Positions 1,132 through 45,895 of a stretch of 50,748 nucleotides of DNA are shown in pieces. This DNA is from an uncultured Thermoplasmatales archaeon (GTDB lineage: Archaea; Thermoplasmatota; E2; DHVEG-1). How positions within the stretch are numbered: position 1 is the stretch's first letter; every line of letters begins with the position of its first letter. A model generated the notes under the pieces. The model was not told where the DNA came from and did not search any database. It saw only the letters and a program-made list of their open reading frames with translations. The stretch is from assembly GCA_964601295.1 (NCBI GenBank), contig CAZRMY010000001.1, forward strand, positions 1-50,748. The letters run 5' to 3'. The translations under genes were made by a program, and so were the position numbers.

Positions 1132-1257
1132 ATATATTACCCCCTTATAGCATCCTAAGAATTTCCCCCAGTGAACCTAATTATATAAATAACTGTTAAT
1201 AAATAATATGGAACAACTATCGAATAAAAATTATAGCAAATTCAAAAAAAGGAGGAT

Positions 1258-14700: not shown

Positions 14701-17700
14701 CACTGTTTCCGATTTGACTAGCGCTGAAACAAATCGTTACATTATATAAACCCGTAGTGGCAGGTGTGAACTCTTCACTTTCCCAGGTGATCCAGTTCCA
14801 ACTTGTACTTGTTTCCTTGTATAACTCACCGGAGACTTCATATGTTGAGCCAACCTCACTGATATCCACAGGTACCGTCACCTGCAAATAATCATAATAT
14901 CCGTTATTGTCCTCGTCATATCCTTGATCTGAGTGGCTGCCTTCAAATATTGCCCCGGGTGTTGAAAAATCAGTATAGCTATGTGCATCAGTTGTGTATT
15001 CATTGCTAATCCAGTCATTGTTGTTATGCAGGCTCACATACAGATTATATGGTCCATTGTATCCTGCGCTATAGATGCTTTCACCGGATAAAGTTATATT
15101 TACTTCAGTTATGCCACTGTTGAGATATGTTTCATTGCTATCCCAGGTAATCCAGTACCAATCACTGCTATGAATATCACCTTTTATCTCGTAAGTTCCT
15201 TCGTAACCATCAGATACATTTATGTTTACCCCAATTTCTAAGTCTCCATCTACTGGGCCATGATCGGAGATATTTACAATTACCGCCCCAGGTCGTGCAA
15301 ATTGATCGTAATCGTAATTAAGATCAGTATCTGGGTCATAATTAGTAATCCAAGTGTCAGTGCCATATTCACGATGTAAATTAAAGTTTATGTTATACGG
15401 GCCATTATATCCACTATTGTAGATATCAGATCCTTCTAACCTTATTGGAACTAGTATGGAGGTATTTGGTTCATTTTCGCCGCCTTCGGAAATAGTTATT
15501 GTTCCGCTATTATTCCACGATATACCTTGCCAATCATACCAACCTCCAGACTGCAGCACTTCTTTGTATAGATTTGCATCAACTCTGTAATCGCCACAGA
15601 CCGAGGCATTAATTGTGGCATTAGCAACTAGCCCTACATACCCATTTGGACCATCTAGGGTATGATGTGAAAAAACATCTTCAAAACAAACTGCGGGTGT
15701 TGAAAAATTATTTTTGTTATACGTGCGTGTAGTAGTATAATCAAGATCATCTAGTGAATTCCAGCTTGTTGAATAAAACAGTCCGATCCATGAGTGCCAG
15801 TTCCCTTCTTGTGCCTGACTTGCTTTTATTTGTTCTCCATCAAAATATATTTGTACCATATGAGAACCTGCTCCTAAAGAGCTTTGAGTATCATTGAATG
15901 TTATCCAGTTATTATTTGAATCTTCTAATCCAGCTTCAACTCTATACGTGCCTGCTGAGGTAACATTTACCGTGACGTTATACACTAAGAAATCATAGTC
16001 ACCGGGTGTTCCCAGTGGAAAATCTTCAACGCTTTCAATGATGCTCCCCTCGGTTATACCGATGCCTTTTGATGTAAACACTTGATCGCCTGATGGGGCT
16101 GTAGCTGTCAGCTTGATATCGTACCAATCTCCATCATCTGCGGTGGATGGTATGGTAAATGAGAACCATCCATGTCCATCTGTTGTATCTGTAAATGAAC
16201 CGCTGCTAAGAGTGTGTTCGCCCATCCAATCCCATGTTACAATTTTCCATGAATAGTCTGCGTTAGCAACCTCTGTTGAATTACTGATGTAACTTAAGGT
16301 GTATGTTCCATTACCTGTTGAACCGGGTCGATAATTGTTTTTATCTATATCAAATTCGAGAGAAAGTGAACTGATCTGAATATCCCAGATATCGTCACGC
16401 GCCACCGGAGTCGAATAGCTTTCATTTTCAACCCACATCCTGAACATATATTCTCCTGTTGAAAACCCTATCGTGTTAATTACAAACTCATGCTGACCAT
16501 ATGAATCCGTGGTATTTGTGAGTGTAGCATAATATTCTTCCCCAAGATGATCTCCATCTGACACATATTCTTTAAAGATCTCAAGTGTACAGTTTGAATT
16601 GGGCAGTCCAGCAGAGGTAATCTCAATGTTAATGTCTTCACCAGCTGCGTACTGCCAGTTATCAATGTCACGTTCCAGGTATGCGCATTGGCTCCAACGC
16701 GGTAGCAGGGTTATATTCCTGTTAAATGTTTCATTTACATCAAGATATACTAATTCCCAATGGCCATCATAATTATTGTCAGATGGATTGATTTGTAACT
16801 CATATACACCTGCTTTTGCATTTATGCTATATTCCCCGGTACTCTCATTTACCGATGTAGTATTTTCTGACATGGTTATTTCATCCCATAGCCATATGTC
16901 TGCATCAAGTGGATTTCCATGGGCATCAGTAATATATCCTGTTATGGTACAGTTTTCAGGTGGCGGTGGACTAAAGTCGTTATAATTATATTTATTGGTC
17001 ATTGTTTGTATTTCGTCAAGTTCACTACCGGTTTGGCTTCTGACTCGTATGTTTACCCATATGGAGGCGTTACATCCCTTAGCGTAGATTGCTCCTCCAT
17101 CAAAACTCAGATTAACATATTGTTCGTCGTAATCAACAAATGTAACTCCTTTTCTTACTCCACCAATATATGGATCACCATCATATGAAAAATCACATGT
17201 CCCAATGTCTCCTTCAAACTCATAGTAGCCTAATGTTCCAACATCGACCTGCAATCCTATTTGTAGATACTCATAGAGCCCGTCATTATTTTCATCAAGC
17301 CCTGAATCAAGTATGGTTCCAGTGAAAAAGATATCTGGTTTGGTGAAATCAGAATATTCATAGCTTTCGGTTACTTTTTGTGCACTATCAAACCAGACAT
17401 AGCTAGAATTTCGCAGATAAGAAACATCATAGACGATGGTATAGGGGCCGTCTATTTTTTTACGGTATATTCGTTCTGCATCAAACGATAACTCAATTGT
17501 TCTTGATCCTGATGAGAGAGTTTTTTGTGTGTCGGTGTTTGTTATCATAACCCCGTTTGAACTGCATAGTTTAGCTTCAACTTTGTAAGATCCTGATTGT
17601 GATACATTAACCTTAACTTTTGTTATGAAATAATCATAGTCTCCGTCAGCATCTGAGTCGTAGGGATTTTCATAGAAGTACCCTTCATTAAATTCAGCGA

Positions 17701-20700
17701 GGGGCTCGGAGGTACCTACTGCAAATATGATTGGTTCGGTAAAACTGGTATCGTTCCAATTTGGGTCATTGTTAGGGATAGATCGTACTGTTGTTTGATT
17801 TAGTTCAGTTGTAGTAAGCATCCACTGGCGTCTATTTTTAAATGAGTACGTTTGTGGGATTCGTACAGTGTAGTTCATGTTAAAAGCGGGGTTGCCGTAG
17901 TATCCCTCAATTTGTATACTATGTATAGTATCGTTTGTGTCTATTTCTTCGTTTGGCGTCATGCTCATGTTTGCGTATATGGTTATTGGATCCGTTGAAG
18001 TTGTATCACCAATAATCCCGCTGATTTCAACAGTTGTAAACTGTGGTTGTATATATGTGTCATCTATTTGATAGTAGGAGAAGGGGATTCGTGCGAGAAG
18101 CATGTTTTCTTCGAAATATCCACTTTGAGTGAAAGATGCATTGATAGAGCTTTTTAGAGTGTCTGCTTCATCAGCATCGATTTGTCCATTGAGGTCGCTG
18201 TCTGTCATTATTCGGATGATTTGGGGGTTGCCTGTTATTGTCCGTGATAATTGTGCGTAGGACAAATTCGTGTTGACAATGTTTAGATTCACATGGATAT
18301 CGTCAGGATCAGTAGCTGTTAATGATATATTGTGTTCAAGTGTTTCATTTGCAGCTACGGTTACTTCGATCACGTTGTTTATATAGCCGCCGATACCTAG
18401 TGGTGGTCCTTCTCGTGTTTCGCCAATGATTTTTGCTAATGTTATGAGATAGAAGGTACCTGCATAGGTTGATGTATTGTAATATCCTGTTTCATCGGTG
18501 CTTGGCATGTCGAAGAAATCTTTTTCGCTTTCATATGGATGCAGAGGATCATACAGTATCAGTTGTACATCCTCAAGGGGTGTACTCTCTGATTTTATGA
18601 ATCCTTCGATAAACGCATTCGATGGTGGCTTTGTTTCCATGTACAATGTTCCAAGATCTATATCTTGGTTAGAGATCGCTGTTTCAATCTCTGTAGCATT
18701 TGTGAAATATCCATCTTTAGCGAAAAATACTTCAAAATCATCTGCATCTCCAGCTATGCAGCCAACTGAGAAATTCCCGTTTTCATCGGTTTCTGTCTGG
18801 TTTTCAAAATAATTTGGTCCTTCAATTGCTACAGTTACATTTGAGATAGGCTCATTTGTGTCAATATCACGGATAGTGCCATTTACATGGGCAGTAATAT
18901 CCCAGATTTTTTCAAGCTCTAATCTTTCAATATCCACAATGCCTTCATATTCCATCATTGTAATAAGATTCCTTATGCCTTCTTGTCTTTCATAGTTGGT
19001 TACATAGCCTTCTGCAGAACACACAAAGCATAGTTCACCATCAGCTGCTTCAGAGACTGATTGATTTATACTAAAATGTAGTTCAAATTGCCCGTTTTGA
19101 GCTGTTTCTGTGCTGTTTAAAATCGTTGTAGGGTTATCCCTTGGATACGCAGCGCTCACGGTTGCATATGGTATCGCAAGATCTGATCTTTCCATATAGA
19201 CTGATCCTGTGACGGTAATGTTTACTTCTCCCTCTATACCGTCCCCTCCAGGGTCGTCTCCACCTGAGGCTATGGAAAAGTTTAAATTTTCAACATGTGT
19301 GTAATCCTCACTGATGCTGATACTATTCCATACAGATGGAAACACCATTTCCTTAGATGCCATTAGATCATAATCGCCCGTTGGCAGATCTGTAAAATTG
19401 TAATACCCTTCCCCATCGGAGATCGTATTATTCATATAACCAGTTGCATTGTTAATTATCTCTATTTCGGCACCATTAATTCGTTCACCGTTGTCCTCCC
19501 ATTTCACATAGCCAGATACTGATGAGTTACCAGATTCATCACCTTGCTGTCCCCCGCCATCTGTTTCGGTAGTAAAACTCCATATCTCGCTGCTATTACT
19601 TTCGTCATGTGTATCCCATGCAACAATCCTCCAATAATATGTAGTATCGCTATCCAATGGCATTAGAGTATAGCTTGTGCTTGTATGATTTTGAGCGATT
19701 TGACCAGGTGGATTGCTGCTTCCAAAATAAATATCAAAGGTTACATCATCACCATCTGGATCATCACATGACCAGCTAATAGCAGTATCCGTGGGTCTAT
19801 CCACCGATCCATCAGGAGGCGTCTCACCATTCGGCCGATTAGGTGGATTATTTCCCCCAGCAGAGGTGGTGGCAAACCAGAATGTTTCATTAGTCCAATT
19901 ACCACTGCCGTAATCGCTGCAGTTTACATACCAATAATACGTTGTATCATATGCTAATGATCCTGTTATATCACAGTATTTAGTCCCATTTTCATCATTT
20001 GATGTAATATTGCTCCCAATATTTGGACTGGTTTCAATAGACCAATTGAGCAAATCTCCCTCAGAATCATTTATAGAAACATACAAGTGGGATATATCAA
20101 TAGGCACCCCTGTTGTTTGATTATTTGGATAGGGGTTCGTAAACTCTGGTGAATTATTACTGCTACCACCGGTGCTATCTGTTTCAGTAGTAAACCAAAA
20201 TGTTTCATTGGTCCAATTACCACTACCGTAATCGCTGCAGTTTACATACCAATAATAGGTTGTATCATACGCTAATGGACCAACAGTGCATGATTTAGTA
20301 CCGTTAGTTTCATCAGAACCAAAATCACTACCAATATCAGGCGATGTCGTGATATACCAGTCAAAATGATCCCCTTCAGGATCCTCAATCAACACGCTTA
20401 AAGAAGAAAGACTTTGTGAAACATCCGTAGAGGTGTTACTGGGATCCGCTGAGGTAACATCAGGCTCATAGTTATGCTCATGGTCATCTTGACCTTCTAT
20501 GGTAATCTCTGCTGCGGCGATATCCGCATCATTATCCCACAAGGGGTTCGGCGCATCTCCTCCGTTATCCTCAAAAATATAAATGGTGTTCCCTACAGAA
20601 ACGTTAAGCAGGGCATCTTGATTCTCTCCAGCATTGTGTGAATCTTCTGAGTCCGTTAAATTAAAGAACCCCCAGAAACAGCCATCATCGGGTTGATTCT

Positions 20701-21046
20701 CATCCCCCCAGGGGCCATATGTAACATTATCATACACAGGGAAAAAGATAGTTTCATCAGTATTATTATTTGTTACATACAAGCAATACGGTGGTTCTGC
20801 GGGTCCAAACAGGTTATCTAGTGAAACATTCACAAACACGATGTCATCGATATCAAAGCCCGATGATTGTACCATACCGCCCTGATCTTCAAAAAACGTT
20901 ATCATGTAATCACCAGACGGCCCCTCTGCATGGATCCGTGGTAACATGGTCACAAAAGATGCTATCATCAGTAATCCTACAATATAACAGCTTAAAATTT
21001 TCCTATATATCTCTCTCTTTTTACTAAATGTTTTTTGCATTTGCAT
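5720..21046 (-). CDS. Giant (~5,100 aa) multi-domain cell-surface protein (adhesin/S-layer-associated-like), membrane anchored at the C-terminus
   Basis: Uninterrupted ORF. Signal-like N-terminus: KKREIYRKILSCYIVGLLMIASFVTMLPRIHAEG. Three FN3-like modules (nt ~19565..20470). Four carboxypeptidase-regulatory-like beta-sandwiches. One canonical EF-hand loop, DSDLNGQIDADE (18167..18202). About 18 tandem ~123-aa repeats. FlgD-Ig-like block (DPFSPNSDGTKD). Three ~96-aa Ig-like repeats. FN3 units (TWTTDESSTSTIEYGTT..YHYQV). Two CHB_HEX_C-like units (YYTTDGSDPT / YYTKDGSDPT). PKD domain (YSWDFGDASSSTEQNPTHSY). PGF-pre-PGF-like block (LMRYHNGEWIELET..YYQAISPGTSSFAIIG). Then a TM helix and a KKPPKK tail. 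The track start (21094) is GTG; I prefer ATG 21046 or 21040, with GGTGG just upstream. Confidence 0.85.
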   Translation of the reverse strand: MQMQKTFSKKREIYRKILSCYIVGLLMIASFVTMLPRIHAEGPSGDYMITFFEDQGGMVQSSGFDIDDIVFVNVSLDNLFGPAEPPYCLYVTNNNTDETIFFPVYDNVTYGPWGDENQPDDGCFWGFFNLTDSEDSHNAGENQDALLNVSVGNTIYIFEDNGGDAPNPLWDNDADIAAAEITIEGQDDHEHNYEPDVTSADPSNTSTDVSQSLSSLSVLIEDPEGDHFDWYITTSPDIGSDFGSDETNGTKSCTVGPLAYDTTYYWYVNCSDYGSGNWTNETFWFTTETDSTGGSSNNSPEFTNPYPNNQTTGVPIDISHLYVSINDSEGDLLNWSIETSPNIGSNITSNDENGTKYCDITGSLAYDTTYYWYVNCSDYGSGNWTNETFWFATTSAGGNNPPNRPNGETPPDGSVDRPTDTAISWSCDDPDGDDVTFDIYFGSSNPPGQIAQNHTSTSYTLMPLDSDTTYYWRIVAWDTHDESNSSEIWSFTTETDGGGQQGDESGNSSVSGYVKWEDNGERINGAEIEIINNATGYMNNTISDGEGYYNFTDLPTGDYDLMASKEMVFPSVWNSISISEDYTHVENLNFSIASGGDDPGGDGIEGEVNITVTGSVYMERSDLAIPYATVSAAYPRDNPTTILNSTETAQNGQFELHFSINQSVSEAADGELCFVCSAEGYVTNYERQEGIRNLITMMEYEGIVDIERLELEKIWDITAHVNGTIRDIDTNEPISNVTVAIEGPNYFENQTETDENGNFSVGCIAGDADDFEVFFAKDGYFTNATEIETAISNQDIDLGTLYMETKPPSNAFIEGFIKSESTPLEDVQLILYDPLHPYESEKDFFDMPSTDETGYYNTSTYAGTFYLITLAKIIGETREGPPLGIGGYINNVIEVTVAANETLEHNISLTATDPDDIHVNLNIVNTNLSYAQLSRTITGNPQIIRIMTDSDLNGQIDADEADTLKSSINASFTQSGYFEENMLLARIPFSYYQIDDTYIQPQFTTVEISGIIGDTTSTDPITIYANMSMTPNEEIDTNDTIHSIQIEGYYGNPAFNMNYTVRIPQTYSFKNRRQWMLTTTELNQTTVRSIPNNDPNWNDTSFTEPIIFAVGTSEPLAEFNEGYFYENPYDSDADGDYDYFITKVKVNVSQSGSYKVEAKLCSSNGVMITNTDTQKTLSSGSRTIELSFDAERIYRKKIDGPYTIVYDVSYLRNSSYVWFDSAQKVTESYEYSDFTKPDIFFTGTILDSGLDENNDGLYEYLQIGLQVDVGTLGYYEFEGDIGTCDFSYDGDPYIGGVRKGVTFVDYDEQYVNLSFDGGAIYAKGCNASIWVNIRVRSQTGSELDEIQTMTNKYNYNDFSPPPPENCTITGYITDAHGNPLDADIWLWDEITMSENTTSVNESTGEYSINAKAGVYELQINPSDNNYDGHWELVYLDVNETFNRNITLLPRWSQCAYLERDIDNWQYAAGEDINIEITSAGLPNSNCTLEIFKEYVSDGDHLGEEYYATLTNTTDSYGQHEFVINTIGFSTGEYMFRMWVENESYSTPVARDDIWDIQISSLSLEFDIDKNNYRPGSTGNGTYTLSYISNSTEVANADYSWKIVTWDWMGEHTLSSGSFTDTTDGHGWFSFTIPSTADDGDWYDIKLTATAPSGDQVFTSKGIGITEGSIIESVEDFPLGTPGDYDFLVYNVTVNVTSAGTYRVEAGLEDSNNNWITFNDTQSSLGAGSHMVQIYFDGEQIKASQAQEGNWHSWIGLFYSTSWNSLDDLDYTTTRTYNKNNFSTPAVCFEDVFSHHTLDGPNGYVGLVANATINASVCGDYRVDANLYKEVLQSGGWYDWQGISWNNSGTITISEGGENEPNTSILVPIRLEGSDIYNSGYNGPYNINFNLHREYGTDTWITNYDPDTDLNYDYDQFARPGAVIVNISDHGPVDGDLEIGVNINVSDGYEGTYEIKGDIHSSDWYWITWDSNETYLNSGITEVNITLSGESIYSAGYNGPYNLYVSLHNNNDWISNEYTTDAHSYTDFSTPGAIFEGSHSDQGYDEDNNGYYDYLQVTVPVDISEVGSTYEVSGELYKETSTSWNWITWESEEFTPATTGLYNVTICFSASQIGNSGQEGYYGVNLWLRQLGGSELDYLDFTTDNSYSLGDFEQPSVRFIENNSYPSDSNDSQYLYTTLRINSSETGSYHVHGSLHKVINQGGWDNWIWIADTEEEITFSSAGEQDVTLSFDISGIQTAGYNGPYTISFEIMDSNWNMLDNLDNYETDFYDFTGLGDIRPIYFTDDHDDYQRASDGNVVVNVTLQVNETGTYSIGGDLHKESSNDWNFIAGQWENMQLIQDSDPQEIQLYFDSIEILSGIQSLSQSMQSTFATGTRFDIDVWVRRAGEWSDLDHFNNESINTYNTSDFSSGGVTIESVSDEGYNNTGGPDYEYLNITANITFSDPGNYEIWCDLSKESNNNWYWIGWTNEYKTVSSSDSEEQIILQFNGEQISSSECDGPYNIHLEVENLDEGRRVAKYDGTTSSGYQSSDFIGSTIEFNESEISDTGVDTDGDGNYNYLSIDVPVNSDESGYVNCELTADLRKQSNYNEEWISWTNNWTSIPSGESTINIRFEGEIMRNSGLNGPYSLRLELRNTDTWKLLDSISDYETSAYSYDNFDAAAASINTSGITNWGNDTDNDDKYDYLDVNVSINVGSDGYYRLEGELYSDTSGWQWIDNTETYTYLEATDDLAILHFDGVKIRNKGLNSPYKARIELRQDGRMIDSYEPYQITGYSYDEFQQSGAEIMSVSDYKTGAGDLQVNVTVNCSTSGYYWLGADLHKQTNWNWEWISWQSNNGNDEFDANEERNITIVFSGQTIQNSEIDGPYHIRLELRDVATWTEQDMIEQYTTDEYSYSEFATPDVTLVSVEDWGNDTVEDEDDLYNYLELNVTVDSASDGTYWMHGDLEKRSGYDWHWITWKGQQIELDGTGEQVVKLKFDGERIYDSAFNGPYTVRIQIMNETTWTMIDSIDDYSTSSYNHDEFQRSTVTLVDDDTYPFDQGVGSEASYSGLQLTVAVNSTTGSSNEYWLQCDLHKESPGSWQWIDWQGETITHNGNGVQLYNITFDGAQIRNKGIDGPYDIRIELCSNTGEWRQYDIIEQYQTNDYDASDFASAGIEFVDMIDGAEDEISNGDLKINVTVNSTVSGKYKINGDLHQELGYSWQWISFNTTEITVNPSGVQTFNLLFDGGDIYDKGLDGPYHVRLELRKVGTDSLIDTIDRYTTSSDYDATDFSAPVGHINGTNDTSSNGNLKVNISTYSAISNEYQYSGVLLAGDYTDIAWSQNTTTVNGETEVNLSFDGSLINASGKDPEKIYIEMRRASDMNLIDSGEFDLVNIYSYDEFGASVSIGEVTFGGVYDSPGSHEGYDYLNISANITFNTAGSYSVSAALVDPNGTFITGKKIPATSYTTGERPVNFSFDGLKIYAKKLNGPYTVSYVAVSKTDIGEITRATNVFTTAAAYAYTDFEHNTSAAAGYIMGNYSSSFINSDADDEYEYLAISMTINVTSASSNFDVYGDLYSSSGSTWITSDSNNSNHNTLWTVGEKTVTLYFEGNNIYSSETDGPYMLGYLRIGANISGTWVLLDEASNVHTTASCNYTDFENETVGALTASGVSEISASNDPFSPNSDGTKDTTLITVSADGGQDLYLNIYNATSVLEKTGISLSETSFGSGTYTATWNGKDDNTNILSDGTYRIKVSDEATGNQANESDTTQTIVIDTAAPTGVSFEIENNDQYTNTTSVSLTTISATDNSSKKMQFKNAGGNYTDWEDFQSTRDWTLTSTDGSKTVYYQVKDTAGNIATAVSDGITLDTTKPSSVTLTITGKGDTPATYSNDQSVTLSISAEDATSGVEYMMIANEMTFSGRTWVEYNTSKEWSLTSSNGIKTVYIKVKDRAGKISDVNSDNITLDTTTPTNLDISINSDQPYTNSTNATLTLSASDTYNMKMRFNNSGSNWSSWESYNEEKANWQLSSGSGTKTVNFQVKDLAGNSATAVSDTINLDTTAPSISNVQSSGITQTSATITWTTDESSTSTIEYGTTTDYGTTSTNSTKVTSHTRTLTGLSSGTTYHYQVKSQDRAGNIRTSVDKTFSTSSGADTTPPNAIEGVSATDKANAESTITLSWNQSNAPDFAGYKVYRRGSTFTNVTSSNVQLLTTITTRSTTTYDDTTATDGTTFYYAVTAIDTATPPNENQTVTSQTGISVDDKPPTTTDNILSGWQTSDVTVTFTPTDNGKGVNKTYYTTDGSDPTNNSNVNRTQYAAPFTIGGENELGDDIWTIKFYSYDKNTTPNIENTHTETLRVDTTDPSTSDDGPSGWQTTTPVTVTLNATDDTSGIYKTYYTKDGSDPTQTAEDEYSTAISFTSQGNRTLKYFSKDNATNTESIKTTHILIDTVRPTSEITTLSQYNSIPVNVSWTSSDASSDVASCIIQTKNGSEGTWTTWLTGQNANGYSQFTNGSIGNTYYFRSIATDNAGNVENDYDASGDAYTTIVSAAMNASITAPSNNEYVRQTISITGTASGPAFSKYWVNHSSDNGSTWTHISNSTSPVSSSVLATWNTSLVAETEYILRLYVINSTAINNSYSINVTVDNTAPNITVGPSSDSVDENSAVISWTTNETTNATVEYGTTSSYGNTKTGSYATSHAITLTSLSASTTYHYRVISYDRAGSSVNSTDSTFTTDETQTTNNNGQQGTQDGTFGLTANANGPYEGTVGSSIEFTGSASGGTSPYSYSWDFGDASSSTEQNPTHSYSSADTYTATLTVTDDTDSTATDTAEVTISEATQDNPPTISSIYHTPTKVTKEDTITIYATVTDDTNLLSVNLYYDDGSEHTTTMSISNGNTYTATIGPFTTGKTITYSIDATDSASQTTQSTVYSFKVIGVAMVGNVTTGESKEAASDDAEGTGVDSIEFTANTDLTDVKVTIEKVTDTDNQVPEEADKHVYSYLEIDVIAGNESVNESDIQSLKIKFKVPQSWFTENNIDKETVTLMRYHNGEWIELETTILNEDETYVYYQAISPGTSSFAIIGSEITEISEPEETSWYWIILAIVAAIVIVVVVLFKAGYLYLERKPPKK
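8925..9785 (-). repeat. Three tandem ~96-aa Ig-like repeats in the giant gene
   Basis: Each unit reads DT(A/T)(A/K/T)P..V...I(N/E)..(Q/P)YTN(S/T)T...L.L.A.D...M.F.N.G.NW..WE.....W.L.S..G.KTV..QVKD.AGN....VSD.I.LDT. Three consecutive copies were read from the translation. Confidence 0.7.
10133..16042 (-). repeat. 16 tandem copies of an unclassified ~123-aa protein repeat inside the giant gene (coding repeat, diverged)
   Basis: Unit boundaries read from the translation at recurrent aromatic-x-x-[DE]-F ends: NKNNF, YDYDQF, YTDF, LGDF, FYDF, NTSDF, QSSDF, YSYDNF, YSYDEF, YSYSEF, YNHDEF, YDASDF, YDATDF, YSYDEF, YAYTDF, CNYTDF. 5,910 nt / 16 = ~123 aa per unit. Confidence 0.75.
16973..17692 (-). 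repeat. First two copies of the same ~123-aa repeat, separated from the main array by an inserted block (16043..16972)
   Basis: Units starting SDADGDYDYFITKVKVNV.. and ENNDGLYEYLQIGLQVDV.., ending YEYSDF and YNYNDF. The insert begins SPPPPENCTITGYITDAHGNPL (CarboxypepD_reg-like). Confidence 0.65.
19874..20281 (-). repeat. Tandem duplicated FN3-like module with a ~90-nt near-identical patch (19874..19963 vs 20192..20281, offset 318 nt)
   Basis: By-eye alignment of the two patches shows ~7 mismatches in ~90 nt. Both encode LAYDTTYYWYVNCSDYGSGNWTNETFWF. The rest of the two 106-aa units is much more diverged. Confidence 0.7.
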
Positions 21047-21063
21047 CCACCTTTTTCCCTCAA

Positions 21064-21078
21064 AGCTCAATTTGAGCT
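21064..21078. promoter_or_regulatory. Perfect 15-bp palindrome (7+1+7) AGCTCAATTTGAGCT in the leader/promoter region of the giant gene
   Basis: Checked base by base: agctcaa-t-ttgagct. It lies 18-32 nt upstream of ATG 21046, inside the 367-bp divergent intergenic region shared with the C25 gene at 21414. Confidence 0.35.
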
Positions 21079-21413
21079 GTTGTGTAAAACACACAATGCT
21101 AGTGATTAGCGGAAGGATGAATAAATTATACGATTATATATCTTTCTATATGTTTGAAAAAATGCTTTTTTTATTTTAATAAACATATTTTTATTTTACA
21201 ATGTCTCTCTGTTTTACATATTTAGGTGTTTATGTAGGTGATGATACGCTATTTGTACATGGTCATACTATTGTTTTTTTAGGAGGTGTTATTTTGTCAT
21301 CTGGGCTTTTTTCCAGCTAATCTTTATATATTGCAATTTGAAAACACTATGCACGATAACAAATAACGTGATATTAAATATCACGGAAATGGAAAGTAAA
21401 GGTTGGAAAAGAA

Positions 21414-29137: not shown

Positions 29138-30655
29138 ATGGAACTGCAGAAAATTATCAGTGAACTATCACAGCATGAAAAAAAAGTTTTACTCACACTT
29201 GAAAAACTTGGTGGAAAATCCACACCAGCAGAGATATTACAGCACGGGGATTTTACAAAACAAGTCGCTGTGATGAATGCTACATCCTGGTTACAGTCAA
29301 AGAAATTAGTAACCGTTGAAGAGCACATATCTAAGACATATGTATTAGGTAAAGAAGGTAAACAGTTTTTACAACAGGGGTTCCCTGAAAAACGTGCGTT
29401 ACGTGTTATTGCTGACCACTCTGGCTCGGCAACCTTTAGCCAGATCGGAAAAGCTCTGGATAAATCTGAAATCTCAGTTGCTATTGGATGGTTAAAACGA
29501 TATGGCTGGGTGACTATATCAAAAGATAAAGATACTGTTTTTAACTTAACGGATAAAGGTAAAAAAGCGCTTTCAAAAACTACTCCTGAAGAACAGGTGC
29601 TTAAGAATATAGATGCTGAAGCATTTGATCAATTAAATATCCCGGCGTTACACAATGTTTTATCACGAAAAAATGTGGTTAAAGAAAAAGAACGAATCTC
29701 CAGTACAATTACTCTCACGGATCTAGGAAAAAATGTGGTTAAAGAAGGCTTAGAGCTTCGTGAAGAGCTAACCCAGTTAACTAGTGAGTCCATTAAGAAT
29801 CGTAAATGGGAAGAAATGTCTATCAGACCGTATGATATTCATGCGTTTGCACCTAATATATATGGCGGTAAACCACATCCGTTGGTATATTTAATTGATG
29901 AAATTCGGCAGATTTTTTTAGAAATGGGTTTTGAAGAAATTGAAGGTCATTACGTTGAATCCGGTTTCTGGAATATGGATGCGTTATTTATCCCGCAAGA
30001 TCATCCCGCTCGGGAAATGCAGGATACCTTGTATTGTTCGCATCCTGCAAAAATGCCGATAAAGGAGACTAAGTTTGTAGAAAAAATCGCTGAGGTCCAT
30101 GAATCAGGTGGTTCAACGGGGTCCTCTGGATGGGGGTATTCTTTTTCCCGTGAGGAAGGTAAGCGTACATTGCTGAGGACGCATACCACGGTTAATACGT
30201 TACGATATCTGTATCATAACCCCAAACCTCCATGTAAGGTTTTCTCTGTTGGTCGGGTGTTTCGTAAGGAAAATATTGATACAACGCATCTTCCTGAGTT
30301 TTATCAGATTGAGGGTATAGTGCATGAAGAAGGTGCAAATTTCCGTCAGCTGTTAGGATTGCTTAAGGAGTTTTATCATAGGATGGGTTTTGAGAAAATA
30401 CGTTTTCGCCCTGGTTACTTTCCGTATACTGAACCAAGTATGGAAGTTGAGGTGTTCTGGAATGACCGATGGATGGAGCTTGGTGGATCAGGTATTTTCC
30501 GTCCTGAGGTTACTCAGCCAGTAGGGGTTACTGAACCGGTGCTTGCTTGGGGGTTAGGGTTAGAACGACTGGCGATGCTTCGGTATGATTTGACGGATAT
30601 GCGTGCGTTGTATACCAGTGATTTAGCATGGTTACGTAAACAGCCTTTGATATAA
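29138..30655 (+). CDS. pheS: Phenylalanine--tRNA ligase alpha subunit (archaeal/eukaryotic type)
   Basis: N-terminal winged-helix repeats. Class II motifs FIPQDHPAREMQDT, LLRTHTT, FRKE..D.THL.EFYQIEG, GLGLERLAM. AGGTGA 5 nt upstream of the ATG. Confidence 0.9.
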   Translation: MELQKIISELSQHEKKVLLTLEKLGGKSTPAEILQHGDFTKQVAVMNATSWLQSKKLVTVEEHISKTYVLGKEGKQFLQQGFPEKRALRVIADHSGSATFSQIGKALDKSEISVAIGWLKRYGWVTISKDKDTVFNLTDKGKKALSKTTPEEQVLKNIDAEAFDQLNIPALHNVLSRKNVVKEKERISSTITLTDLGKNVVKEGLELREELTQLTSESIKNRKWEEMSIRPYDIHAFAPNIYGGKPHPLVYLIDEIRQIFLEMGFEEIEGHYVESGFWNMDALFIPQDHPAREMQDTLYCSHPAKMPIKETKFVEKIAEVHESGGSTGSSGWGYSFSREEGKRTLLRTHTTVNTLRYLYHNPKPPCKVFSVGRVFRKENIDTTHLPEFYQIEGIVHEEGANFRQLLGLLKEFYHRMGFEKIRFRPGYFPYTEPSMEVEVFWNDRWMELGGSGIFRPEVTQPVGVTEPVLAWGLGLERLAMLRYDLTDMRALYTSDLAWLRKQPLI

Positions 30656-30702: not shown

Positions 30703-30709
30703 TTTTTTT
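30703..30709 (+). terminator. T7 run downstream of pheS (overlaps the stop codon of the convergent heliorhodopsin gene)
   Basis: ttttttt at 30703..30709, 48 nt after the pheS stop. Confidence 0.35.
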
Positions 30710-31502
30710 ATATTGGACGGAGCGTGCCAGCGTAGACCTGCCATGCAAGTGCAGATTTTGCGACAAGACTTAGGATAATATATGCCCGTTCGCCGTAAAG
30801 GTAGTCCCGCCATTTACCGATTTTTTTGTACTGCAGAACCATATTAATGGCAAATATGTTGAAGAAGATCGCAATGGATATGAAGATATAATAGACAAAG
30901 TCAGGTATGCTGCCTTCTGAGGCAATAGTTGCTCCTCCGAGATACAGGGCTATGACTACCCATGGTATGACACCTGCGAATACTCCAAAATAGTAACTTG
31001 TCCAGTTGGTTTTTTGTGTGGTCTGGTTGTGTAGCTCCATCATTAAACCAAATAGGTTCATGCAGGCGTTGATAGCAAAAATTGGGATAAGCGTTCCTAG
31101 ATCGTAGATCCCAACAAGCATGGCGATTACTACGATCATAACTGATGAGCTAAACGCATATTCGAACCATCGTGCGTAGTTGATATGTCTTTTTAGGTTT
31201 TTTACATACCAGGGGTATCCCCATGGAGACGAAAGTGAGAAGTGTGCGATAGCTGAAATAAGGAGGAACAGCGCAACTAATGGTGCAATGGTGATTTCGG
31301 CAAGAGTACTTGTTGTAAGACCAAGGCTTTGAGTCGCGGTATTGTATTCAAGGTAAGATAATGTGATTGGCAGATGAAAATCTGTGCTGAGATACAGCAT
31401 GAGACTAAACTGTATAAAATGAAAGCATCCCATGATAAAGTTGAATATACGTAAACGGTGAAAGACCAGCGGTTTTTCCATTGTCTGTTGAATGGAGGCC
31501 AT
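30708..31502 (-). CDS. Heliorhodopsin (7-TM retinal protein, inverted-topology rhodopsin family)
   Basis: 264 aa with seven hydrophobic segments. Family blocks recalled from HeR 48C12/TaHeR: FHFIQ (His28), SAIAHF (His87), RWFEYAFSSSVMIV (counterion Glu114), VLQYKKIGKWRDYLYGERAYIILSLVAKSALAWQVYAGTLRP (Schiff-base Lys249, codon AAA at 30756..30758). Confidence 0.88.
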   Translation of the reverse strand: MASIQQTMEKPLVFHRLRIFNFIMGCFHFIQFSLMLYLSTDFHLPITLSYLEYNTATQSLGLTTSTLAEITIAPLVALFLLISAIAHFSLSSPWGYPWYVKNLKRHINYARWFEYAFSSSVMIVVIAMLVGIYDLGTLIPIFAINACMNLFGLMMELHNQTTQKTNWTSYYFGVFAGVIPWVVIALYLGGATIASEGSIPDFVYYIFISIAIFFNIFAINMVLQYKKIGKWRDYLYGERAYIILSLVAKSALAWQVYAGTLRPI

Positions 31503-31523
31503 AATAGGGGATAGTATATGCAG

Positions 31524-31556
31524 GTAAAATATTTTTTGCGATAAAGCTTTATATAT
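31524..31556. promoter_or_regulatory. Back-to-back promoter region between the heliorhodopsin gene and the divergent membrane-protein gene
   Basis: On the plus strand, AAAGC-TTTATATA (31543..31555) lies ~26 nt before ATG 31579, consistent with a leaderless transcript. On the minus strand, AAAAAATATTTTA (31524..31536) lies ~25 nt before the heliorhodopsin ATG. Confidence 0.35.
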
Positions 31557-32556
31557 GTTATATTATATTTTTTTGTATATGCTATGTAAAAGTAGAGTAG
31601 GTCTTACAACACTTCTCGTGCTTTTGTTCATTATAAACATGAGTGTATTAACTGTTCAAGCACGTCCCTATCTTTTTACCACTGATTCATCACTTTCATT
31701 ATCTGCGTCTCCAACAGACCTTGGGTTAATATCCCCTGGAACAGGTGAAGCAGACAGCACATTAACAATTACCTATGCCTACGGACGGTTTGCTCGACCA
31801 GCGGGATTTCCTCTACCAAATAGAAAAACACCTACATCGATTATGCTTGCAGTTGAAAGTAGCCCTACTTGGTGTGAAGTTACCATAGATGCTCTTGAAT
31901 TCAGTGCGCAAATAGGTAGTTTCGTTCAATCAGGATCGGTTGACTTTACCGCTAATATCTCAGCACAAATCCCCGCTGCAGATACCCTTGCAAATCAACA
32001 AGGAATTATTGTGGTAAATGTCTCTGCTGCACAAAATGGTAATATTTTATCTTCCACTCAGCAAATCGAGCTCACCGTAACATCTGGTTTTATCCCAGCT
32101 ATTGATTACACGATATCAAACACGACATTTGAGTTGCACCCAAATGAACAACAAATAACTACACTACAAATAGAAAATACAGGTAATACACCGCTTTATG
32201 TTGAAGCTAAGGTTGATCATACACATACTGAAATTTTCGATATTACTATACCTGAACCGCAAATGCTCGATGTTGATCAGGATGCATCCATATCTGTTAC
32301 CATTTCTGCTCGAGACAATGAGAACCTCAGCAGTCAACGTTTACATGTTAATGTAAGTCTGGATTATTTTGCTGTTGAAAATCATTCTGCTGCTGGTGCC
32401 TCTGAAAAAATACCGTTAACCATTGAATTTATGGTAACTGCTGAAGATGAAGCTGATCTTATTGATCTTGCTCCTTTTGTTATTGGTATCTTTGGTGCTT
32501 TCTTAGTGTTATATCTACTATTTTGGATTGTATCTCGCAGACGCCGGCAGGCCTAA
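31555..32556 (+). CDS. Hypothetical type-I membrane-anchored surface protein (two Ig/CARDB-like beta-sandwich regions, C-terminal TM + RRRRQA)
   Basis: Signal-like GLTTLLVLLFIINMSVLTVQA. LHPNEQQITTLQIENTGNTPLYVEAKV resembles CARDB/NEW3-type strands. C-terminal TM FVIGIFGAFLVLYLLFWIV. The true start may be ATG 31579. T6 run at 32610..32615 downstream. Confidence 0.55.
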   Translation: MLYYIFLYMLCKSRVGLTTLLVLLFIINMSVLTVQARPYLFTTDSSLSLSASPTDLGLISPGTGEADSTLTITYAYGRFARPAGFPLPNRKTPTSIMLAVESSPTWCEVTIDALEFSAQIGSFVQSGSVDFTANISAQIPAADTLANQQGIIVVNVSAAQNGNILSSTQQIELTVTSGFIPAIDYTISNTTFELHPNEQQITTLQIENTGNTPLYVEAKVDHTHTEIFDITIPEPQMLDVDQDASISVTISARDNENLSSQRLHVNVSLDYFAVENHSAAGASEKIPLTIEFMVTAEDEADLIDLAPFVIGIFGAFLVLYLLFWIVSRRRRQA

Positions 32557-32735: not shown

Positions 32736-34352
32736 ATGACGGAAAGGATATCAACTTTTATTATAATAGTGCTACTATTAACTAGTTTTCTACCAGCTAG
32801 CATTACTGCGTATCATTCATCTGAGCAACCACTACCACTCACTAGCACATCACATACGGTAGGACCAGAAACAGACTCTGAGCCGCTACCATATGTTATG
32901 AAAGAATCGTATTGTGATGCCGTACCTATAGATACTACCTCTAAACCACTAGCAGTGGATACTCCGGAGTATTTCAGCTGGAAAGAGTATGCAGATCAAG
33001 ATTGGACTTCACCGGTTAGAGATCAAGGATTTTGTGGAAGCTGTTGGTGTTTTGCAGCACTCGCGGTTGTAGAAAGCGCGATCAACATTCAAGAGAACTG
33101 CTCCTATTTAGATTATGATCTCTCTGAACAATATGTACTCTCTTGTCTTCCTAAAGCAGGATCCTGTATGGGCGGGATGGCCTATCGGGCGTTAAAATAT
33201 ATCATCAATGAATCTGCTGATGGCAACTACTGCAATGGTATCATACCTGAAGCATGCATGCGCTACCAAGCACGAGACGATGTCCCGTGTAGTGATAAAT
33301 GTCCAGATTGGCAGGACCGGCGTATCCCATTAGTTAGTTATGCTCGGTGGAACGCAGAACCAGAAGATCGTGAGCTTATAAAAACTGAGATCATGCAATC
33401 AGGACCGGTAGCAGTTGCTATGTATGTTAACCGAGATTTTCTCAGCTGGCATATGACCAGTCATGACCCTGCGGATTATTATCCGTTTCAGGAGGAACAT
33501 TCAACTAATCATCAAGTGCTGATGCTTGGATGGAAGGATGACCCTGCGATTGGAAATGGGGGGTATTGGATTTGTAAAAACAGTTGGGGGCCAGGATATG
33601 GCTACGGCGGCTTTTTCAATATTGAATATGGTAGTCTACATATCGATGACTCAAATATTTTATCTGTAGAATATGACCCTCTAAGTTTTAATTGTCCGCC
33701 CGTTGCAGAAGGGAATGGACTGTATGAAACACATAGTGGAGCGGAACTCACTTTTGATGCTACCAATAGTTTTGATGTTGATAGTGACATTGTTTCATAT
33801 CATTGGACTTTCGGTGACGGTAACGAAGCATCCGGAACAATAGTAACCTACAGCTACGACACAGAAGGCATCTATCCCGTAACCCTTACGGTTACTGATG
33901 AACAAGGGAAAACAGGCGAGTATACAACCGCAGCATTTGTCGACTGTGTTAATCATCCGCCAGCAAAGCCCACTATCCAAGGACCACACATATTAACCAA
34001 CTTTACTTTCTATAATTTCACCTTTAGCTCAAATGATCCTGAAGGAGATAACATCTATTATTACATTGATTGGGATGAAGCAGAAATAGATGAATGGATA
34101 GGCCCCTATGATTCTGGAGAAGACGTAATATTACCCCACAGTTGGATGCAGCGTGGATTCTACACCATTAGAGTAAAAACAAAGGATATTTACGGCTATG
34201 AAAGCGATTGGGCGACAACTCGAGTGATACTCCCGCGAAACCAAGGGCTTTTTCAAAATACTTTTCAACAACTCATACCAGCATTCAAGAAATATCTTCC
34301 AGTAGATGCTCTCTCTTTAAGTCATAACCCATTTGAACTACGTATAACATAA
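32736..34352 (+). CDS. Secreted papain-family (C1) cysteine peptidase with PKD domain and PKD-like C-terminal module
   Basis: Signal peptide. Catalytic blocks RDQGFCGSCWCFAALAVVESA (Gln/Cys), STNHQVLMLGW (His), YWICKNSWGPGYGYGGF (Asn-Ser-Trp). PKD domain (YHWTFGDGNEASGTIVTYSYDTEGIYPVTLTVTDEQG). PKD-like module at 33951..34242. Confidence 0.88.
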   Translation: MTERISTFIIIVLLLTSFLPASITAYHSSEQPLPLTSTSHTVGPETDSEPLPYVMKESYCDAVPIDTTSKPLAVDTPEYFSWKEYADQDWTSPVRDQGFCGSCWCFAALAVVESAINIQENCSYLDYDLSEQYVLSCLPKAGSCMGGMAYRALKYIINESADGNYCNGIIPEACMRYQARDDVPCSDKCPDWQDRRIPLVSYARWNAEPEDRELIKTEIMQSGPVAVAMYVNRDFLSWHMTSHDPADYYPFQEEHSTNHQVLMLGWKDDPAIGNGGYWICKNSWGPGYGYGGFFNIEYGSLHIDDSNILSVEYDPLSFNCPPVAEGNGLYETHSGAELTFDATNSFDVDSDIVSYHWTFGDGNEASGTIVTYSYDTEGIYPVTLTVTDEQGKTGEYTTAAFVDCVNHPPAKPTIQGPHILTNFTFYNFTFSSNDPEGDNIYYYIDWDEAEIDEWIGPYDSGEDVILPHSWMQRGFYTIRVKTKDIYGYESDWATTRVILPRNQGLFQNTFQQLIPAFKKYLPVDALSLSHNPFELRIT

Positions 34353-43249: not shown

Positions 43250-44299
43250 ATGACACAAATTGGAATTGTAAGCTATGGAGCCTATATACCGCGTCTACGT
43301 ATAAAAACCGAAGAAACTGCGCTTGTTTGGGGAAAAGATGGCGCAACAATTAGCCGAGGGTTAGGTATACTGGAAAAAACTGTGCCCTCAATTGACCAGG
43401 ACACCGCGACCATCAGCGTTGAAGCCGCGCGATCAGCGCTTAAACGTTGTACAATTTCACCTGCAGATATCGGCGCGATATACATCGGAAGTGAATCACA
43501 TCCGTATGCTGTTAAACCTACGGGGACTATTGTGGGTGAAGCAATAGCTGCAACACCAGATTTAATGGTAGCAGATTTTGAATTTGCTTGTAAAGCGGGT
43601 ACCGCTGCGATACAAGTGTGTACTGCTCTGGTCAAATCAGATATGATCAAGTATGGTCTTGCAATCGGTGCAGATACTTCTCAAGCAGCACCAGGGGATG
43701 CATTAGAGTTTTCTGCTTCAGGAGGGGGAGCTGCATTTATCATTGGCAAACAAAATGTTATCGCAGAGATTAATCACACTTATTCATATACCACCGATAC
43801 TCCTGATTTCTGGCGACGGGAAGGACGTAAATATCCTGAGCATGGAGGACGATTTACCGGTGCACCCGCGTATTTCAAACATATTTCCAGTTGCGCGCAA
43901 AAACTCATGGAAAAAGCAGGGGGCACTCCTTCAGATTACCAATATGCAATATTTCATCAGCCAAACGGGAAATTCCCTGTGAATGTTGCTAAGAAACTTG
44001 GATTCTCCAAGGATCAAATCAAACAGGGGCTTCTCTGTCCATATATAGGAAACACGTATTCAGGTGCAGTTCCTATTGGTCTTGCCTCAGTATTAGATGT
44101 AGCTAAACCAGGAGATAGAATTTTTATTACCAGCTATGGTTCTGGTGCGGGGAGCGATGGTTTTGATATCACTGTTACCGATGAGATAACTAAGCTTGCT
44201 CGCGTTAATGCACCAACAGTCTCTGAACTTGTAGAAAACAAAGAATATGTCGATTATGGGACATATGCAAAATATCGTGATTTATTATATTGGGAGTGA
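43250..44299 (+). CDS. Hydroxymethylglutaryl-CoA synthase (archaeal type)
   Basis: 349 aa. [35 protein letters not shown] (active-site Cys), [15 protein letters not shown]. First gene of the thiolase/DUF35 trio. Confidence 0.88.
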
Positions 44300-44306
44300 T
44301 ACTAAA

Positions 44307-45473
44307 ATGAGAGATGTTGCGGTTGTTGGGGTTGGTATGACCCAATTTGGTGAATTATGGGATAAATCATTCAGACAACTTACTGCAGAAGCAGGAGCGA
44401 AAGCCATCTTAGATGCAGGCGTTGAAGGAAAAGAAATTGATGCTATGTATATTGGTACTATGAGCGCTGGTAGATTTGTAGGCCAAGAACATGTGGGCGC
44501 ACTTGTTGCAGATGCCAGTGGATTTGCCCATGAACACATTCCAGCAACTCGAGTGGAAGGCGCATGTGCATCAGGTGGACTTGCAATACGTGAAGGCTAT
44601 ATGTCAATAGCTGCTGGAGTTAATGATGTTGTGGTAGTTGGGGGTATTGAAAAAATGAATGATGTTGGTGGCACAGCAGCCACAGAAACCTTGGTTACTG
44701 CAGCGGATCAAGAATGGGAGGCATTTTTTGGTGCTACCTTCCCAGCTATTTATGCGATGATGGCAACCCGACATATGCATGAATATGGGACGACTCGTAA
44801 ACAACTCGCTCAGGTGGCGGTAAAAAACCATGCAAACGGTGCATTAAACCCTCACGCACAATTCAGACGAACACTCCCTCTTGAAACAGTATTAAATTCT
44901 ACGACCGTTGCTTACCCGTTAACCCTTCTTGATTGCTCACCAGTCAGCGATGGTGCTGCAGCAGTAGTGCTCTGCGCAGCTGATAAAGCCAAAAAATATT
45001 CAGATAAACCGCTTAAGATACTAGGATCTGGGCAGGCATCAGATACCTTAGCACTCCATGCACGAGATAATATAACAACTATTGATGCTACTGTACAAGC
45101 CGCTCAGATGGCATATAAACAAGCAGATATTAAACCATCAGACATACACCTTGCTGAAGTCCATGACTGCTTCACCATAGCAGAAATTGTAGCAATTGAA
45201 GACCTCGGGTTTGTCAAAAAAGGCGAAGGCGGAAAAGCAGTTGAACAACATATAACAACCTTAGACGGTACACTACCTGTTAACCCAAGTGGTGGTTTGA
45301 AAGCCAAAGGTCATCCTGTGGGCGCCACTGGCGTTGCTCAAATAGTTGAAATAGCCTATCAACTCAGAGAAGAAGCAGAGAAACGCCAGGTAAAAGATGC
45401 AACCATTGGTTTAGCACACAACGTTGGCGGATCGGGTGCCACCTGTACCGTTCACATCCTGGAGGCGATGTAA
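44307..45473 (+). CDS. Acetyl-CoA C-acetyltransferase (archaeal thiolase)
   Basis: [24 protein letters not shown] (nucleophile Cys), EVHDCFT, NPSGGL.AKGHP.GATG. I moved the start from the track's 44247 (which overlaps HMGCS) to ATG 44307, 7 nt after the HMGCS stop and preceded by GGGAG. Confidence 0.88.
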
Positions 45474-45475
45474 TC

Positions 45476-45895
45476 ATGCCAAGTGGAGTAGCACGATTCT
45501 GGCGAGAAATTCCCCAACGATATAATCTCATAGCTAACAAATGTGGTGCGTGTAATCGTATTTATTTTCCTCCACGGGAATCATGTCCATATTGCCGGCG
45601 TAAAAGTATCGGTAACATGATGGAAACCAAGCTGAGCGGAAAAGGAGAAATTTTTTCCTATACGATAATTCATGTGGCCCCTAAAAACTTTGAAAAACAG
45701 GTCCCATACGCAGTAGCGATTATCCGTTTAGATGAAGGCCCGCGGTTAACCGCTCAGATAGTCGATACTCCGTTAGAGGAAATAAAAATTGGTATGCGTG
45801 TCGAGTCAACATTCCGCCGTATCCAGGATGAAGGATATACCGGCGCGATATACTATGGTTATAAATTCAAAAAGAGCGCTGAAAACAAACCCTAA
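45476..45895 (+). CDS. DUF35 OB-fold/zinc-ribbon protein (scaffold subunit of the archaeal thiolase/HMG-CoA synthase complex)
   Basis: CGACNRIYFPPRESCPYC zinc ribbon followed by an OB-fold-like GEIFSYTIIHV..AVAIIRLDEGPRLTAQI. Starts 2 nt after the thiolase stop. Confidence 0.85.
   Translation: MPSGVARFWREIPQRYNLIANKCGACNRIYFPPRESCPYCRRKSIGNMMETKLSGKGEIFSYTIIHVAPKNFEKQVPYAVAIIRLDEGPRLTAQIVDTPLEEIKIGMRVESTFRRIQDEGYTGAIYYGYKFKKSAENKP

Follow-up and report, generated by a model that had tools for sequence, protein, structure and literature searches.

The window analyzed here is a stretch of 50,748 nucleotides from an uncultured Thermoplasmatales archaeon (contig CAZRMY010000001.1 of assembly GCA_964601295.1, positions 1 to 50,748 of the forward strand). 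It carries a heliorhodopsin (HeR) gene and, head-to-head with it, a gene for a membrane-anchored protein, which we refer to as the partner; the spacer between both genes contains a putative bidirectional promoter. Two HeRs of known structure served as points of reference, 48C12 from an actinobacterial host and TaHeR from Thermoplasmatales archaeon SG8-52-1, an archaeal protein that gave the family its defining crystal structure. The features at this locus are, one per line:

30708..31502, minus strand: HeR gene, 264 amino acids (aa), seven transmembrane (TM) helices, ATG start; full-length Pfam and NCBIfam HeR matches
30756..30758, minus strand: AAA codon of the retinal-binding Lys249, the counterpart of K241 in 48C12 and of K238 in TaHeR
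31523..31554, both strands: putative bidirectional promoter core of about 32 bp, conserved in seven aligned HeR-partner spacers
31523-31538, minus strand: putative HeR-side element CAAAAAATATTTTACC, some 20 nt upstream of the ATG of HeR
31539-31554, plus strand: putative TFB recognition element (BRE)/TATA-like element of the partner, CGATAAAGCTTTATAT, the partner-side half of the core
31579..32556, plus strand: partner gene, 325 aa from the ATG at 31579 (start set by the open reading frame finder: 31555); homologues are paired with HeR in eight contigs

The open reading frame (ORF) at 30708-31502 encodes a genuine heliorhodopsin with every sequence feature of a retinal-binding HeR. A previous sequence-only reading of this DNA had proposed this from two motifs, RWFEYAFSSSVMIV starting at residue 111 and SLVAKSALAWQ starting at residue 245, and the searches bear it out. 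The product matches the Pfam family PF18761 (Heliorhodopsin) over the complete profile (positions 1-242 of 242) with an E-value of 2.6e-98 and 328.6 bits at a gathering cutoff of 26.7, and the NCBIfam HeR equivalog NF038020 with 352.9 bits at a cutoff of 100. A comparison with all PDB sequences gave six significant matches and all six are heliorhodopsins. The top match is the TaHeR entry 6IS6 (E = 1.9e-93), followed by 48C12 entries including 6SU3 (about 1e-58) and 6UH3, and the first non-rhodopsin match, at E = 0.13, is unrelated. Matches of this strength go well past what chance would produce. Identity amounts to 61% over 257 aligned residues for TaHeR (PDB 6IS6, 7U55; E108D mutant 7CLJ) and to 45% for 48C12 (PDB 6SU3, 6SU4, 6UH3). 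The HeR domain of the protein begins at residue 17, without an N-terminal extension in the Pfam match.

The functional residues named in the same reading also agree with the alignment to both reference proteins, in which the lysine of TM helix 7 and the glutamate of TM helix 3 find their counterparts. H23, H80, E107 and K241 of 48C12 correspond to H28, H87, E114 and K249, with E114 at the position of the counterion and K249 at that of the retinal-binding lysine. Three serines (S83, S118 and S245) align to S76, S111 and S237 of 48C12, which together with E107 stabilize the Schiff base in that protein (PMC7049168). The Schiff-base cavity of 48C12 contains H23, H80, N101, Y108, N16, E230, R104 and Y92 (PMC7049168), and the cavity network of the window HeR (H28, H87, N21, Y99, N108, R111, Y115, E238 and E156) is identical to that of 48C12. 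Taking the complete list of 36 key positions, which also covers the E149 region (E149, Q216, Y226, W105, Q213), P40, P172 and the Q26/S242/W246 cluster (PMC7049168), 34 are identical in the window HeR, among them those of the Schiff-base cavity and of the E149/R104 region. These positions were mapped via a HMMER alignment, and the numbering agrees with native 48C12 (E107 and K241 as expected). The two deviating residues, N149 and M221 (I142 and Q213 in 48C12), are the ones found in TaHeR, and methionine is often found in place of Q213 (PMC7049168). Furthermore, H23, H82, E108, S112, S234 and K238 of TaHeR have identical residues in the window HeR. The sole difference between PDB 7CLJ and 6IS6 is an E to D exchange in the column aligned to E114, which independently marks this column as the TaHeR counterion E108.

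Conservation across the family points in the same direction. Seventeen polar or charged residues of the core (N21, H28, S83, H87, Y99, N108, R111, W112, E114, Y115, S118, E156, Q224, E238, S245, K249 and W254) were checked in an alignment of 121 sequences, made up of the window HeR and its 120 top-scoring homologues. Each of them is invariant among the aligned residues, with at most three gapped sequences at any position, which argues for selection on a retinal-binding protein. Seven TM helices in the inverted topology, with the N-terminus inside, are predicted from hydropathy, the alignment to solved HeR structures and the positive-inside rule, as 10 lysine and arginine residues are located in the loops on the N-terminal side versus 1 in the opposite loops; this is in line with the topology established for the family.

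More than 7,800 HeR clusters were retrieved, among the best 8,000 candidates by words common with the query. In a neighbour-joining tree the window HeR falls within a small monophyletic sub-clade, whose members are 74-88% identical to one another. The sister group consists of HeRs from metagenome-assembled genomes (MAGs) labelled Bathyarchaeia, Hadarchaeota and "Thermococci" (L002-L007), which are 72-75% identical to the window HeR; this mixture of labels could reflect horizontal transfer between sediment archaea or else noise in binning and labelling. Taken as one, both groups form the sister lineage of the TaHeR-containing clade of the Thermoplasmatota. The window HeR is an ordinary HeR from the very lineage that yielded the archaeal archetype of this well-known family. 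It differs from TaHeR in the extracellular E-F loop, which is five residues longer here (GGATIASEG versus ISAES), and in belonging to a separate sub-clade, one that carries a conserved divergent partner.

For this partner gene, the ATG at 31555 abuts its own BRE/TATA-like element and the homologues align from the second methionine; therefore, the true start is probably 31579, which would be consistent with a leaderless or near-leaderless partner mRNA. The protein has a signal/anchor helix with an ARPY motif, two immunoglobulin (Ig)-like beta-sandwich domains and, at its C-terminus, a TM helix and an RRRRQA tail (...DLAPFVIGIF...RRRRQA). An AlphaFold2 model based on a 32-sequence alignment (mean pLDDT 91.7, pTM 0.73) contains the N-terminal helix, the two beta-sandwich domains and the C-terminal TM helix. 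The partner is best described as a putative surface protein of type I that spans the membrane once, with two Ig-like ectodomains and a tail of about five residues in the cytoplasm. Foldseek searches of the PDB with the model returned only generic tandem Ig-like, ASH or PapD-like structures (among them hydin, the CfaB pilin, the CEP192 SPD-2 domain and the calf domains of integrin alpha), none with a TM-score above 0.43, and a function derived from the fold was dismissed as uninformative for this reason. No Pfam family scored above cutoff for the partner (best: Cep192_D3 with 24 bits versus 27) and neither did any NCBIfam model (best: PVV_CTERM with 13.9 bits versus 27). An archaeosortase-sorted protein was considered as well (PGF-CTERM, PVV-CTERM and similar) and rejected, as no sorting-signal model exceeded its cutoff. 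Some distant members of the family (P0287, P0291) end in ...IPGFEII... or ...ISGFEII..., which resembles the PGF-CTERM archaeosortase signal, whereas the window partner has ...DLAPFVIGIF... at this place.

HMMER was run exhaustively against 1.84 billion representative proteins and yielded only 63 relatives of the partner, nearly all of 300-335 aa and matching over the full length. They all begin with a hydrophobic stretch that ends in (A/S)-R-x-Y and close with a TM helix and basic residues after it, and by sequence the family appears narrow and compact. A word-based homologue search with the partner recovered the query itself only, and a pattern scan of metagenomes found 2 loci only.

In all eight retrieved contigs of the window HeR sub-clade, which are independent of one another (the window, L001, L081, L082, L086, in which HeR is cut by the contig end, L089, L092 and L095) the partner gene is located head-to-head with the HeR gene at a distance of 52-94 bp. 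The paired partner genes encode proteins of 317-333 aa without a Pfam family and are clearly homologous across the loci, with phmmer E-values of 2e-72 to 3e-42 and profile E-values of 1e-82 to 1e-105 at pairwise identities of 32-55%. The pairwise identities of HeR and partner co-vary (Mantel r = 0.52, p about 0.04), which is consistent with joint inheritance. The genes that border the eight pairs change from one contig to the next on either side: a C1 peptidase, an HMGL-like protein, a pyridine-nucleotide oxidoreductase, a rhodanese, an MscS channel and others are encoded on the partner side, and pheS, a radical SAM protein, an FKBP, C25 peptidases, a nitroreductase and others on the 3' side of HeR. 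In the orientation of HeR, the conserved core of the spacer reads ATATAAAG-N-TTTATCG(C)AAAAAWTATTTTACC, and L095 contains a diverged copy. We infer that this core could represent two archaeal BRE/TATA elements arranged back-to-back.

With somewhat better than even odds, we assume that the adjacency of HeR and partner is inherited synteny without functional coupling, that is, that HeR was inserted by chance beside an independent surface-protein gene with a promoter of its own, in the ancestor of one lineage. Pairing is limited to one monophyletic HeR sub-clade, and a search with the partner profile in the other 79 genome-derived HeR loci, including those of the sister HeRs at 72-75% identity, gave no match. 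Among the partner-family members that were looked up beyond the original loci, P0247 is paired with HeR (L095), and P0249 (L096), P0253 (L097) and P0260 (L087) have no adjacent HeR; the partner-side half of the promoter is also present upstream of the partner-family genes in these HeR-less loci. Therefore, the partner family exists independently of HeR. In L097 (734-3112) the partner-like gene is divergent to a nitroreductase gene whose product is 53% identical to the one encoded directly after HeR in L092 (2436-5668). L097 looks like the L092 locus without HeR, which would indicate gain or loss of HeR beside the partner. The generic Ig-like matches of the fold search fit this account too, and a cytoplasmic tail of about five residues offers no evident route for signalling into the cell. 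All these points weigh against a functional pairing. Synteny alone has to accommodate that both flanks are reshuffled in all eight contigs, yet the pair and its short spacer are intact, and that partner sequences with no more than 32-55% identity imply a long evolutionary time during which the adjacency was kept. Either the pair has a single origin or some lineages lost HeR; from then on the pair was retained.

Taken together, a functional link between HeR and partner seems doubtful to us, and we name the partner only tentatively as the locally most promising candidate for a protein that interacts with HeR or is co-regulated with it. A more specific and rather unlikely version is that it is a dedicated accessory of this HeR sub-clade, docking on the exposed face or the TM surface of HeR, where it might capture retinal or a xanthophyll from outside and hand it on to the fenestration or couple photo-activation to a process at the cell surface.

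The partners of HeR shown by experiment include glutamine synthetase for AbHeR, a photolyase for TfHeR and the ABC transporter OmrDE for OcHeR (PMC9529153, PMC9769723, PMC11109279). The likeness to these systems is in concept only, namely a regulatory HeR that binds an adjacently encoded protein: their partners are encoded co-directionally in the same operon and have cytoplasmic or ATPase parts, whereas the window partner is divergent, almost wholly extracellular and single-pass. Ten groups of same-operon HeR neighbours have been published (glutamine and NAD+ synthetases, photolyase, MerR, TerC, ABC transporter, short-chain dehydrogenase/reductase, alpha/beta hydrolase, DUF2177 and DUF2238; PMC11109279), and none of the ten domains occurs in any ORF of the window. 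The previous statement that there is no obvious soluble partner overlooked the divergent membrane-anchored gene at 31579-32556, which accompanies HeR in all eight contigs retrieved for the sub-clade. Another system with some likeness is sensory rhodopsin II-HtrII of haloarchaea, in which a photoreceptor also has a membrane-anchored neighbour that could interact via TM helices. Htr proteins have two TM helices followed by cytoplasmic HAMP and methyl-accepting domains and are co-transcribed with the rhodopsin. With one C-terminal TM helix, a tail of about five residues and no cytoplasmic domain, the partner was rejected as an Htr-like transducer.

Two further genes border the pair in the window:

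29138..30655, plus strand: pheS, archaeal phenylalanyl-tRNA synthetase alpha, convergent with HeR with 52 bp between the stop codons; taxonomic marker
32736..34352, plus strand: gene of a papain-family (C1) peptidase with a PKD domain, on the strand of the partner and 179 bp downstream of it; not conserved beside the pair elsewhere

The HeR gene is its own transcription unit by geometry, being convergent with pheS and divergent from the next gene, with no co-directional neighbour; the sequence-only reading had already called it monocistronic and convergent with pheS. In none of the related loci examined is pheS located beside HeR, and a conserved pheS-HeR adjacency was ruled out on this basis. 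The closest named relatives of the PheS protein, with 66-67% identity, come from Thermoplasmata/Thermoplasmatota MAGs including Thermoplasmatales archaeon SG8-52-3 and Thermoplasmata M8B2D, and the comparison places the host in the Thermoplasmatota, nearest to SG8-52-type sediment MAGs. The archaeal housekeeping genes of the contig comprise L7Ae, the archaeal-type PheS and a trio of HMG-CoA synthase, thiolase and DUF35, and L7Ae and the trio support an archaeal host. The trio (HMG-CoA synthase-like, thiolase and DUF35/OB-fold; 43250-45895, plus strand) is arranged in the way typically seen for the entry complex of the archaeal mevalonate pathway.

The protease-rich setting noticed before is evident, with C25 and C1 peptidases with PKD domains flanking the region. 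The surface-protein genes of the contig comprise two C25 (gingipain-family) peptidases, the C1 papain-family peptidase with PKD, a NosD/beta-helix protein, a BNR/dockerin protein and a giant of 5,124 aa. The ORF of the giant (5720-21094, minus strand, GTG start) encodes domains of the types PKD, CarboxypepD_reg, fn3, CHB_HEX_C and DUF4785 as well as a TM anchor at the C-terminus, and its product is presumably a huge cell-surface protein. At the left edge of the contig, an incomplete ORF (1-1176, minus strand) contains divergent InlB B-repeat (Flg_new_2) domains, and an ORF of 696 aa (48644-50734, minus strand) has no Pfam match at all.

A light sensor in such a host had been called ecologically puzzling, but as a novelty this does not stand, because the situation is documented for the host of TaHeR (PMC9385722) and for the Thermoprofundales (MBG-D), which are rich in extracellular gingipain and clostripain peptidases (PMC9585477). 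One Thermoprofundales subgroup is reported to have HeR, with most of its MAGs stemming from surface habitats exposed to sunlight (PMC9585477). For a protein-degrading member of the Thermoplasmatota of the sediment type, HeR with no retinal genes nearby is therefore a known situation. The hosts of TaHeR and of the window HeR are similar in phylum and lifestyle, and the retinal pathway is reported absent in the former and is absent from the contig in the latter. The HeRs of Thermoprofundales subgroup E and the Znf-HeRs of Thermoplasmatales are likewise found in sedimentary Thermoplasmatota rich in C25 gingipains and clostripains (PMC9585477, PMC8612252). Their loci differ in having crt and photolyase/UvdE genes in the same cluster, some of them also an N-terminal zinc ribbon, whereas the window locus has none of these.

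We also asked whether HeR is associated with surface proteases in general. C25 or C1 peptidase genes are located near HeR in the window, L001, L089, L050 and L057, but among the 80 genome-derived loci this is limited to 3. Two co-directional C25 genes follow directly downstream of HeR in L089 (6001-10218), a C25 gene lies about 8 kb from HeR in L001, and L050 and L057 have one on each side of HeR (around 8600-12260), where the HeRs are only about 61% identical to that of the window. In raw counts, 22 of 63 immediate neighbours of archaeal HeRs are of the signal-peptide type versus 65 of 377 (p = 0.002, with a crude predictor and ORF calling); after collapse to 10 independent HeR clusters the numbers are 6 of 20 versus 23 of 113 (p = 0.25). 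A general association of HeR with surface proteins was discarded, since it is not robust after collapse of related loci, and as the host genomes are rich in peptidase and surface genes, we do not take an association with surface proteases as established. Other genes seen near HeR encode a UbiA-family prenyltransferase, within 2-3 kb in L089 (3020-3934) and L092 (6405-7406), and serpins in L082, L089 and L092.

As the best overall explanation, which we regard as probable, the window encodes a functional HeR of the TaHeR type, a non-pumping photoreceptor with a chromophore from outside that is transcribed alone from a promoter shared with the partner. By analogy to TaHeR and 48C12, the protein would bind all-trans retinal at K249 with E114 as counterion, insert with the N-terminus inside and probably dimerize. 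Its photocycle would be slow, and most likely it would regulate another protein by contact and not act as an energy-conserving pump, for which the pairs of HeR with glutamine synthetase, photolyase and ABC transporter are precedents (PMC9529153, PMC9769723, PMC11109279). Transcription would start from the compact bidirectional promoter that HeR has in common with the divergent surface-protein gene.

The supply of the chromophore is part of this explanation. In agreement with the sequence-only reading, which had found no retinal-synthesis gene nearby, no ORF of at least 90 aa on the whole 50.7-kb contig contains a carotenoid- or retinal-synthesis domain (crt, blh), a result that covers one contig of the host genome and leaves room for a retinal pathway elsewhere in it. 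The host of TaHeR reportedly cannot make retinal, and the fenestration of TaHeR has been proposed to bind retinal from outside (PMC9385722). If the published positions follow 48C12 numbering, the window HeR would also show the residue pattern of such a fenestration. With this precedent and no such gene on the contig, uptake of the chromophore from outside, through the fenestration, would be probable for the window HeR as well. The restriction to one contig speaks against this explanation, as does the fact that homologues with 61% and 45% identity are the source from which binding of the chromophore, the photocycle and the lack of transport were extrapolated; furthermore, a recent preprint argues that HeRs are two-antenna light harvesters and not sensors (preprint 10.1101/2025.11.27.691015).

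This last view leads to the alternative that the window HeR is a light-harvesting or ion-transporting rhodopsin with a carotenoid from outside as second antenna, serving energy conservation, which we consider improbable. TaHeR reportedly shows no ion transport. In the same preprint, the pattern of the lateral fenestration and carotenoid site consists of aromatic residues at 162 and 206, small residues at 166 and 210 and G169 (preprint 10.1101/2025.11.27.691015). If its numbering is that of 48C12, as assumed here, the corresponding residues of the window HeR are aromatic Y170 and F214, small V174 and A218, and G177, and the combination of Y170, F214, G177 and A218 would fit an antenna. The positions reported to narrow the opening in 48C12, I170 and F203, are the smaller V178 and A211 in the window HeR, and V178 stands in place of F172 of TaHeR at the fenestration. 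Viral HeRs are reported to transport protons (PMC9448325), but the transporting viral subfamily is described as having no carotenoid site (preprint 10.1101/2025.11.27.691015), and the extracellular half of the window HeR would be hydrophobic by homology, as in 48C12 and TaHeR (PMC7049168).

The sediment origin of the nearest named host relatives and the contig without a chromophore pathway could also suggest a relic gene or a light-independent role in dark sediment, for example of the apoprotein as membrane scaffold or as sensor of retinoids or lipids. We judge this very improbable: the ORF is intact and its promoter conserved, the GC content of the gene is not anomalous (42.1% versus 40.5% for the contig), and the 121 homologues show no variation among their aligned residues at K249 or anywhere in the Schiff-base network, which argues for continued selection on retinal binding. 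In addition, HeR-bearing Thermoprofundales are reported mostly from sunlit surface habitats (PMC9585477).

Within the explanation of a TaHeR-type photoreceptor, the HeR itself adds little, since the family is large and its archetype TaHeR is already from a Thermoplasmatales archaeon without reported retinal synthesis. The divergent pair of HeR and an Ig-like surface protein is a modest new lead, which we did not find in the HeR literature searched. Earlier analyses of HeR gene context scored same-strand, that is co-directional, neighbours only (Bulzu 2021; Cho 2024; PMC8612252, PMC11109279). A divergent pair kept in eight of eight contigs despite complete reshuffling of the flanks is a cheap and testable candidate for what archaeal HeRs work with, and natural controls are at hand in related loci that have the partner but no HeR and in related HeRs that have no partner. 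If the link is true, the partner would be the first extracellular-facing partner of a heliorhodopsin and the first one proposed for archaeal HeRs of the TaHeR type.

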